Below, piece after piece: positions 22,801-25,800 of a DNA stretch of 64,000 bases (position 1 is the stretch's first letter; each line of letters begins with the position of its first letter). The stretch comes from Eledone cirrhosa. Its lineage: Eukaryota. The stretch spans positions 17,732,001 to 17,796,000 of the forward strand of contig OZ024756.1 of the NCBI GenBank assembly GCA_964016885.1. Reading direction: 5' to 3'. The notes beneath the pieces were generated by a model. That model was given only the letters and a program-made list of their open reading frames with translations. It was not told where the DNA came from and did not search any database. A program made the position numbers and the translations under genes.

Positions 22801-25800
22801 GACAACAACCACAAACATTTTAAGGCCATTTTTCCCTGTTAAAATAGGGTTAATTTTACAGGTCTCATAACAAGCTTCATACTGAATGCGGGGTTCTTTT
22901 TGAGGCAATGTTTTATGGCTAAATACCCTTTTTGGTATCAACTCTTTTAGCCACCTATTAAAACATACAGGAATACAGTGATCCTATTCTTTTTGTTATC
23001 GACCTTGAAAGGATGAAAAGCAAAATTGACCTTGGCTGGATGTGAACTCAGAGTGCAGAGAAACGGAACAACTACCATGTTTCTACTTTTGGCACAAGGC
23101 CAGCAATTGGTACTTTATTTTATTGACCCCTGTAAGGATGAAGGGCAAAGCTAACCTCAGTAGGATTTGAACTCGGGACTTAAAGAGAAGTAACTATGTG
23201 CCACAAAGCATATTGTCTGATGCTCTACCGACACTGCCAATATAATTTAACGATCGACTTTCGTCAAATCGGACCGAGGGAACAATGTTTCCGTTGGTCT
23301 TTCCAATTGCTAATACTATCTATCGGTCGCAACTCCAGGTAGAAGGAGCAACGTGAAATAAAGTGTCTTGCTCAAGGACATAACGCGTCGCCTGGTCCAG
23401 GAATCGAACTCACAACCTTACGATTGCGAATCCAATTCTCTAACCACTCAGCCACATGCCTTCACTGCCAATATAATGCAACGCAAAGAAGGGAAATAAT
23501 GGGAAAAAATGGGTAAAAATTAAATAAACCAAAGAAAATTCTCTCCAAAGAAGATGGGTGGGGGTTGACTTCTGAGGTTTAGACATAGAAAAGGTCACAA
23601 AAACCCCACAGTCACCCTGACCCCTAAGGCATGTGTGCTTTCTCCCAAGTAACGAAACACCAGTATAATTACCTCTATAATTACATTTTGGTCCATAATA
23701 TTTGCGTAGGCATCCATCTATACAATAACCGTTGTCGGGGTAGCAGTTACCATGGAGACAGTGACTACATCTTTTACACCGTCTACCATATCTGTAGTAG
23801 CCGTACTCACAGTGATTGTGTCCAAAATGATGTCTGCGGTGGTGACCAACACCATGACCATGACCGTGTCTGTGACCATGACCGTGCCTGTGCCTGTGAC
23901 CATGACCGTGACCGTGTCTGTGACCATGACCGTGACCATGAAAGTGTCTGCAACCATGTCTGCGACCATGACCGTGACCGTGACCGCGAAAGTGTCTACA
24001 ACCATGTCTGCGACCGTAACCATGACCGTGAAAGTGTCTGAAACCATGTCTGTGTCTGTGACCATGACCGTGACCGTGAAAGTGTCTGCAACCATGTCTG
24101 CGACCGTGACCATGACCGTGAAAGTGTCTACAACCATGTCTGCGACCGTGACCATGACCGTGAAAGTGTCTGAAACCATGTCTGTGTCTGTGACCATGAC
24201 CGTGACCATGAAAGTGTCTGAAACCATGTCTGTGTCTGTGACCATGACCGTGACCGTGAAAGTGTCTGAAACCATGTCTGTGTCCATGACCGTGACCGTG
24301 AAAGTGTCTGCAACCATGTCTGTGTCCATGACCGTGACCACGAAAGTGTCTGCAACCATGTCTGTGTCTGTGTCCATGACCGTGACCACGAAAGTGTCTG
24401 CAACCATGTCTGTGTCTGTGTCCATGACCGTGACCGTGAAAGTGTCTGCAGCCATGTCTGTGTCCATGACCGTGAAAGTGTCTGCAACCATGTCTGTCAC
24501 GATGAGCGTGTCTGGCGTGAATACTGCGACGGTGTCTGTGAGCTGGACGGTGTCTGTGAGCTGGACGGTGTCTGTGAGCTGGACGGTGTCTGTGAGCTGG
24601 ACGGTGTCTGTCAGCTGAACGGTGTCTGCGAGCTGGACGGTGTCTGTGAGCTGGACGGTACATGTGAGCTGGACGGTGTCTGTGAGCTGGACGGTGTCTG
24701 TGAGCTGGACGGTGTCTGTCAGCTGGACGGTGTCTGTCAGCTGAACGGTGTCTGCGAGCTGGACGGTGTCTGTGAGCTGGACGGTGTCTGTGAGCTGGAC
24801 GGCGTCTGTGAGCTGGACGGTGTCTGTGAGCTGGACGGTGTCTGTGAGCTGGACGGCGTCTGTGAGCTGGACGGTGTCTGTCAGCTGAACGGTGTCTGCG
24901 AGCTGGACGGTGTCTGTGAGCTGGACGGTGTCTGTGAGCTGGACGGTGTCTGTAAGCTGGACGGTGTCGGTAAGCTGGACGGTGTCTGTAAGCTGAATGG
25001 TGTCTGTAAGCTGGACGGTGTCTGTAAGCTGGACGGTGTCTGTGAGCTGGACGGTGTCTGTAAGCTGGACGGTGTCTGTAAGCTGGACGGTGTCGGTAAT
25101 CTGGACGGTGTCTGTAAGCTGGACGGTGTCTGTAATCTGGACGGTGTTGGTAAACTGGACGGTGTTGGTAAACTGGACGGTGTCTGTAAACAGGGTGATG
25201 TCTGTGAACTGGACGGTGTCTGTAAACTGGACCGTGTCTGTGAGCTGGACTGTGTCTGTGAGCTGGACCCTGTCTGTGATATGGATCGTATCTGTAAACT
25301 GGACCTGTAAATAATTTCAAACAACATAATGAGATTATATTAATGACTTGTGTAAAGTAGGCGGAGCAAATAAAGATTGTCGCTATTTAATGATTTCTAC
25401 TTTAGATACAAGGCCAGAAATATGAGGGGTGGGGGTGAGTTGATTAAATCAGCCTTCACTACATTACTGGTATTTTATTTTATTGACGCTGAAAGGAGAA
25501 AGGCAAACTTGACCTCAACAGGATTTGACTTCAGAATGTAAATATTGCTGCACATTTGTCTGACACCCTGAGGACTCTGCCAATCTACAGCTTTCATGTT
25601 GCTGTTTAACCCTTTAGTGTTCAAACCGGCCCAAACCAGCCAGAATTCTCTACCCATTTCTGTTGAAACTGGCTGTAACTGGTCGCTCCAACTGATGTTA
25701 AGGTATTGTTCTCAAAATAAATACTTTCAAAATCTCATAGATTCGATATTATGTGAGATATTATGTGAGGTAAAGCCTTTACCATGAAAATATAATAGTA

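Follow-up and report, generated by a model that had tools for sequence, protein, structure and literature searches.

A candidate histidine- and arginine-rich exon in a putative octovafibrin locus of Eledone cirrhosa and its possible role in egg cement

Introduction

A 64,000-nucleotide stretch of the Eledone cirrhosa genome (GCA_964016885.1, contig OZ024756.1, positions 17,732,001 to 17,796,000; hereafter the window) carries an open frame that encodes a linker of 497 residues, rich in His and Arg, and behind it a module with eight Cys residues. Is this frame an exon, to which gene does it belong, and what would such a polycation do? Coordinates are those of the window, and the exons, modules and frames described below lie on its minus strand unless stated otherwise. 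It is likely that a secreted egg-envelope protein has 23673..25304 among its spliced exons. The exon status rests on splice signals and on context.

The exon and its repeats

The candidate exon (23673..25304) is 1,632 nt long, has phase 1-1 and is flanked by AG and GT. Read from 25304 to 23673, it holds 543 whole codons, of which 29% encode His, 25% Arg and 13% Gly. The His/Arg frame has no stop codon across the exon span, and the other five frames have 1, 14, 4, 5 and 96. Cys-rich frames of the plus strand and a Thr/Asp/Val frame of the minus strand were rejected as coding; they have stop codons inside the span and do not encode the module.

The linker is built of three blocks. Block A (24532..25304) consists of 43 consecutive 18-nt units of the R-P-A-(H/Y)-R-H type, as seen with TRF (period 18, 43.2 copies, 90% matches, 0% indels) and by listing the units. 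It is 31% Arg, 24% His and 15% Pro. RPAHRH occurs 14 times and RPAYRH seven times, three 12-residue pairs are present, and the Tyr-bearing units sit at the 5′ end of the block. A spacer of 13 residues, absent from an earlier note made on this DNA, separates it from block B (23929..24492), whose translation gives 13 HG[C/F]RHF[H/R]G[H/Y]G units. Nine of these carry Cys and four carry Phe; 12 end with GHG and one with GYG. Block C (23812..23928) translates into a Gly-His run of 39 residues. The exon closes with the Tyr-rich 8-Cys module of 46 residues and its donor (23673..23811). Apart from the spacer, the earlier note had described the 43 and 13 units, the nine Cys and four Phe, the Gly-His run and an intact EGF-like module, and all of these were borne out.

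It had also been claimed that all length changes keep the frame. This is true, yet it is expected from repeat slippage; slippage of 18-nt and 6-nt units keeps the frame by mechanism, and thus frame-keeping indels are weak evidence. The open frame alone is also weak evidence, since block A with 20 random substitutions stayed open in 70% of 5,000 simulations. The variants of block A comprise five synonymous and 15 non-synonymous types, out of 13 and 40 possible, and these types give no sign of purifying selection on the block A sequence.

The acceptor of the exon is T-rich and ends with AG. A simple model, for which the 14 other acceptors of the locus (several of them near-duplicates) served as the training set, gave it a score of 10.3; those 14 range from 2.6 to 13.1. 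Could the repeats be skipped by an acceptor just before the EGF-like module, as the earlier note had named against its own reading? Such an acceptor was looked for in silico and rejected, because none is in frame. Among the 120 internal AGs of the exon, 41 are in frame; all 41 lie within block A, the last at 24542, and all but one score -3 or lower. None of the 120 offers an in-frame acceptor between block B and the module. Thus, splicing to an AG directly in front of the module would put it out of frame, and the module is not spliceable in frame without block B. The one better-scoring in-frame AG, at 25298 (-), lies 6 nt behind the main acceptor with a score of 5.2, and its use could drop two residues.

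Word-based homolog searches with the whole exon and with the module alone gave no matches, Pfam assigned no family to the whole exon, and an Atlas search with the exon reached a best score of 0.76, which is uninformative. A single-sequence model of the whole exon had a mean pLDDT of 42; it is no proof of disorder, since the model fails even on the 8-Cys module. At low confidence (pLDDT about 45-60), this model has 12 short beta-strands in block B, one in each of 12 units, and gives a hint of a stacked ladder of Cys and Phe. The module itself is laminin-EGF-like by fold and profile comparisons. Its AlphaFold model had a pLDDT of 87.5; the input was an alignment with 12 rows, taken from modules of the window itself. 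The nearest folds are laminin/netrin LE modules, weakly so (Foldseek E 0.05), and the structural comparison with VIA was weak as well (Z 3.8; 47 residues at an rmsd of 3.0 A). Pfam EGF_laminin stayed below the cut-off for the module (E 0.064), and a PDB sequence search with the module profile gave 0 matches.

The octovafibrin exons

Octovafibrin is an egg-thread protein of Octopus bimaculoides (PMC10336842, PMC12817120). Judged from sequence, an octovafibrin gene, either the ortholog or a paralog, reaches with its C-terminal end into the 5′ end of the window along the minus strand, since thread peptides map to four exons there. The peptides are the MS/MS peptides of O. bimaculoides egg-thread octovafibrin (PMC10336842), which were compared by eye with the translations.

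The first of the four exons (62962..63072) is a canonical 6-Cys EGF exon corresponding to the last EGF repeat of octovafibrin, with a Pfam EGF match (E 3.8e-8) and a peptide match. Its Cys spacing is 5-6-9-2-9 (Cys 5, 10, 16, 25, 27 and 36), as in octovafibrin. Two lectin exons come next, so that an EGF repeat precedes a C-terminal C-type lectin. The first (62078..62269) is matched by octovafibrin peptides and by Pfam Lectin_C at E 0.0026, below the cut-off for this half alone. The second (60846..61061) is also matched by octovafibrin peptides, the best with 15 of 16 residues identical. The fourth exon (58442..58588) encodes the first 8-Cys module. It is matched by three octovafibrin peptides, one of which runs across the junction with the lectin. 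Because these three thread peptides match the exon, the octovafibrin protein, as read from them, extends beyond its C-terminal lectin into the first 8-Cys module, whereas the domain scheme in print stops at that lectin (PMC10336842).

In total, ten of the 22 published peptides map to the four exons, and 116 of their 169 residues are identical (69%, by eye). The ten are m/z 654.30 (10/16 residues identical), 746.83 (10/13), 472.20 (4/8), 1101.53 (23/39, with one 2-residue gap), 981.47 (15/16), 663.85 (16/23), 719.33 (6/13), 895.05 (19/22), 460.20 (7/8) and 649.29 (6/11). Three of them span predicted junctions, whose split codons encode Gly, Asn and Ile; Gly and Ile agree with the peptides. The remaining 12 resemble EGF repeats expected 5′ of the window; the signal peptide, the N-terminal lectin and the series of tandem EGF repeats of octovafibrin would likewise fall outside it. 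In the comparison by eye, no peptide of the 22 has its origin beyond the first 8-Cys module, and all were cut from the 135-kDa band alone. In the lectin exon 60846-61061 (-), two residues that are Tyr and Ser in the O. bimaculoides peptides are Cys instead (by eye), and this pair possibly forms an extra disulfide.

The downstream modules

What follows the octovafibrin exons? On the same strand, 29 related Cys-rich modules were found, all with phase 1-1 like the octovafibrin exons. Profile matches identify them as tandem laminin-type EGF-like modules of the kind found in MEGF10 and SCARF, with Pfam below the cut-off and weak fold matches. The array from 52092 to 31639 has 22 intact module exons (17 with eight Cys and five with seven) and two truncated copies. 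The closest database protein is O. bimaculoides XP_014771587.1 ("scavenger receptor class F member 1-like"), an accession found in no paper of the open-access literature searched. It resembles the array in three linker-plus-module units, 56-63% identical, including the 7-Cys type. In contrast to the window locus, it is a fragment-like model of 227 residues with no His-rich parts, and its first 30 residues are unmatched in the window.

Fourteen module exons of 147 nt within 36238-49888 (-) are near-identical, with 13 differing codons of which five are silent. This suggests very recent tandem duplication or over-expansion in the assembly. Among 15 module copies (33279-49927), six have an in-frame distal acceptor 39 nt upstream, and nine have the distal position at 40 nt, three of these nine without AG. 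Thus, only the proximal acceptor is usable in nine of the 15, due to the 40-nt distance or the loss of AG. The 40-nt distance may reflect a T-run allele or a homopolymer error. The five 7-Cys modules (at 50947, 49545, 44205, 41107 and 36040) lack the second Cys, and the third module of XP_014771587.1 lacks the same one, which suggests that an unpaired thiol is conserved in this type. The two truncated copies (about 35030-35200 and 32150-32320) stop short behind the position of the sixth Cys and lack a donor; one of them passes into an AT repeat.

Upstream of the His/Arg exon sits a candidate micro-exon of 42 nt (28588..28629, phase 1-1), Arg/His/Gly-rich, with AG, GTAAGT and an open frame. A paralogous exon (21339..21725) encodes a Gly/His linker of 82 residues (41 His, 26 Gly) and an 8-Cys module 63% identical to that of the His/Arg exon. 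Pfam gave no real match on it. The two His-linked modules are sister rows in the module tree (support 92/95), on a branch that is not starred, as is the case for every branch of the tree. Intron flank can be aligned between the His/Arg exon and its duplicate for only about 45 nt per side, while the duplicate has kept a Gly/His linker written in other Gly codons. The Gly codon GGT makes up 55 of 62 in blocks B and C versus five of 26 in the paralogous linker, with the repeat copies not being independent. Between the two His-linked modules, dN/dS is 0.58 on 25 differences and uninformative. Comparison with the 20-kb module gave a dN of 0.40 and a dS of 1.57 with 8/8 Cys kept, while for the 17-kb and 15-kb modules dS has reached saturation.

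Four more 8-Cys module exons, bearing Tyr and His, lie at 20139-19981, 17620-17459, 15088-14927 and 13562-13404. The last module found (9628..9747) has six Cys and an open donor. Shortly past this donor lies a His/Tyr-rich open frame of 321 codons (216 His; 8594-9559), which stems from a C/A/T triplet repeat. An intronic simple repeat is its most likely reading, a His-rich terminal exon a less likely one. The open frames 18958-19422 and 14499-14882 resemble decayed retroelement ends.

Did the His/Arg block, then, simply grow as a minisatellite in a tolerant linker between modules? It would be a functionless repeat, a mostly skipped exon or part of a decaying tandem array. The missing selection signal in block A, with its 70% chance of staying open, fits this idea, as do the phase 1-1 of the exon, which makes it skippable as a whole, the two truncated module copies, the distal acceptors out of frame or lost in nine of 15 copies, and the His-coding simple repeat that also arises in an intron at 8594-9559. 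On the other hand, the acceptor is strong and the module intact, and the His/Gly/Arg bias recurs in the micro-exon, in the paralogous exon with different codons, and in the short linkers of the 20-kb and 17-kb modules. I consider this explanation improbable.

One gene or two

Is the His/Arg exon a part of the octovafibrin gene? Provided that the exon is used, it is rather more probable that it is joined to octovafibrin as a long splice form with about 2,100 extra residues. That it belongs to a sister gene directly behind octovafibrin is somewhat less probable, though a serious contender. The product of O. bimaculoides, XP_014771937.1, is like the window locus in the Cys spacing of its last EGF repeat, its C-terminal C-type lectin and the 8-Cys module that follows. 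It differs in being described as a 135-kDa lectin-29 EGF-lectin protein (PMC10336842), whereas the window continues in phase with 29 more modules and two linkers rich in His. The words "histidine" and "isoform" do not occur in the accessible text of PMC10336842. In the threads of O. bimaculoides there is only a 135-kDa band, at least 80% octovafibrin (PMC10336842), and RefSeq keeps the downstream modules (XP_014771587.1) as a model separate from XP_014771937.1.

A link would have to cross a gap of 6.3 kb. A candidate composite exon of 36 nt (54898..54933), with an acceptor and a phase-1 donor, and a candidate micro-exon of 15 nt (52508..52522, phase 1-1) lie there. Reading through at 54898 leads to a stop three codons on, with AATAAA at 54773, which is the layout of a composite terminal exon. 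Linking mini-exon candidates in the gap number two versus 0.87 expected (200 shuffles, P=0.21), which is not above chance. A strict scan found no convincing signal-peptide first exon between 58441 and 52093, and a relaxed scan of the same gap found one weak candidate, overlapping the composite exon.

The composite exon invites a further proposal, which I consider unlikely: the octovafibrin gene may yield the known short fibre protein and, via the composite exon at 54933, a long form that would be the protein half of the green egg cement. With 29 more modules and a His/Arg block of about 500 residues, the long form would be fluid with a polyanion at pH 5.2 and would set in seawater. If this is true, the cement would be bonded to the thread through the common lectin-EGF body, and one gene would make both rope and glue.

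Conversely, the downstream array might be a separate MEGF10/SCARF-like gene, perhaps for a membrane receptor, outside the egg envelope and merely adjoining octovafibrin. The best database relatives are named MEGF10, SCARF or receptor-phosphatase, the RefSeq model is separate, and the open donor on the last exon leaves room for a membrane anchor further on. However, the relatives got their names automatically and from the module alone, one 8-Cys module is already part of octovafibrin, and the gap has no clear first exon. Neither a clear membrane-anchor exon nor a gene end was recognised below 9628 within the window. A separate gene of this kind, outside the egg envelope, is regarded as quite unlikely.

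A possible egg-cement protein

The location of the exon in the octovafibrin locus points to a role in the egg envelope. Histologists have long described octopus egg cement as a pH-sensitive material to which two glands contribute. It is made by the peripheral oviducal gland and polymerised by the central gland (PMC8976471). The peripheral granules are strongly eosinophilic, and an acidic polysaccharide, both carboxylated and non-sulfated, comes from the central gland (PMC13336147); this disagrees with PMC8976471, which calls the polysaccharide sulfonated, citing older work. The mature distal oviduct has a pH of 5.2, while stability of the coat is limited to pH 5.5-9.0 (older work cited in PMC13336147). 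Coacervates of a polycation and a polysaccharide are known from sandcastle worm cement (PMC9999432).

I propose that the exon encodes part of a secreted egg-envelope protein whose His/Arg linker binds the acidic polysaccharide secreted in the oviducal gland, thereby helping to cement the egg stalks. The chances for and against this proposal are about equal. The linker of 497 residues has 129 Arg (26%), 156 His and eight Asp+Glu. Its charge, calculated with textbook pKa values, is +266 at pH 5.2, +158 at pH 6.8 and +123 at pH 8.1, which supports the earlier claim of a strongly cationic, pH-dependent region. In the proposed mechanism, the folded EGF, lectin and 8-Cys parts would anchor the protein in the fibre, while the flexible linker, at about +266 at oviduct pH 5.2, would pair with the polyanion as a complex coacervate. 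In seawater, His would lose its charge (net about +123) and Arg would hold the polyanion. The joint would then be cured by His-metal contacts and by disulfides, to which the linker would contribute its nine Cys and each of the five 7-Cys modules its unpaired one. Coacervation and metal binding by the linker are plausible. Against the cement proposal, the peripheral product is described as a glycosylated mucoprotein, whereas the linker has only six Ser+Thr in 497 residues; a Ser/Thr-rich O-glycosylation domain is not present, as far as this exon is concerned.

How do other functions of the linker compare? In a multi-copy precursor of antimicrobial peptides, each repeat is flanked by a convertase site. 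The linker does not show such sites in a regular pattern. It has 13 RR, 0 KR, four G-basic-basic sites and one furin-type site for 56 units, and the earlier suggestion of a precursor of repeated antimicrobial peptides is unsupported. A more general antimicrobial shield at the egg surface is also conceivable, in which an Arg/His polycation, either tethered or released, makes bacteria clump or kills them while the eggs are brooded; it would be compatible with the cement proposal. The charge of the linker speaks for such a shield, although this charge is screened by seawater salt, the repeats have no regular processing sites, aliphatic residues are nearly absent, and trypsin-like cutting would give 97 pieces of at most 18 residues, mostly six or four. 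Cuttlefish egg-case proteins that are cationic and Cys-rich are bacteriostatic and agglomerate Vibrio (PMC4500399). On balance, I consider the shield improbable.

The linker could also be an octopod stand-in for the histidine-rich beak proteins of squid, in which chitin is hardened via His-catechol cross-links. Such proteins were not found in O. bimaculoides, which leaves a gap (PMC9068888), and the linker does have GHG motifs. However, the squid proteins are hydrophobic, with a pI near 6 and GHG-hydrophobic-Tyr motifs (PMC11931252), while the linker is 26% Arg, has a net charge of +123 at pH 8.1 and lacks the GHG-hydrophobic-Tyr motif; moreover, the exon sits in an egg-protein locus. This function is extremely unlikely, and catechol cross-linking of the squid-beak type, which had been suggested, is unlikely by composition.

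The cysteines of the linker had been called free, a state that was inferred and never observed, and the claim is unsupported; in a secreted protein, the nine Cys are more likely oxidised or metal-bound. Taken as a whole, the earlier interpretation holds in its part on charge and pH, is unsupported in its parts on a precursor and on free Cys, is unlikely in that on catechol, and missed the octovafibrin context.

Returning to the cement proposal, no paper naming an octopus egg-cement protein was found in the open-access literature, where octovafibrin is named in just three listed works, and the exon is a named sequence candidate for it. If the proposal is true, this underwater adhesive would rely on His/Arg and Cys instead of Dopa, and a tough EGF fibre would be joined to it. 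No His-rich stretch was found in 182 related proteins (maximum six His in 30 residues), and thus the linker has so far been seen in one species.

Some known systems are similar in part. SepECP1 and SepECP2 of Sepia are likewise cationic, Cys-rich egg-envelope proteins that mesh with polysaccharide, but they have no repeats, carry charges of +70 and +42 and come from the nidamental gland (PMC4500399). "EGF" and "histidine" are absent from the accessible text of that paper. Works-alike systems are the sandcastle worm proteins Pc-2 and Pc-5, which form a polycation-polyanion coacervate with sulfated polysaccharide, and the His ends of mussel preCols, whose His-metal bonds weaken at low pH (PMC9999432); the His-rich junction protein mfp-4 of mussels may be added. 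These worm and mussel glues are made of separate proteins, whereas here fibre modules and a charged block would be in one locus or chain. No evidence of Dopa was seen for the present candidate. The flatworm Macrostomum has Mlig-ap1 (PMC6410801), which differs in having Lys/Arg rather than His/Arg, calcium-binding EGF and von Willebrand domains, and a role in temporary adhesion. No homology is claimed, but Mlig-ap1 works in a similar way, with a C-type lectin, a series of EGF domains and very long cationic repeats that bind polyanions.
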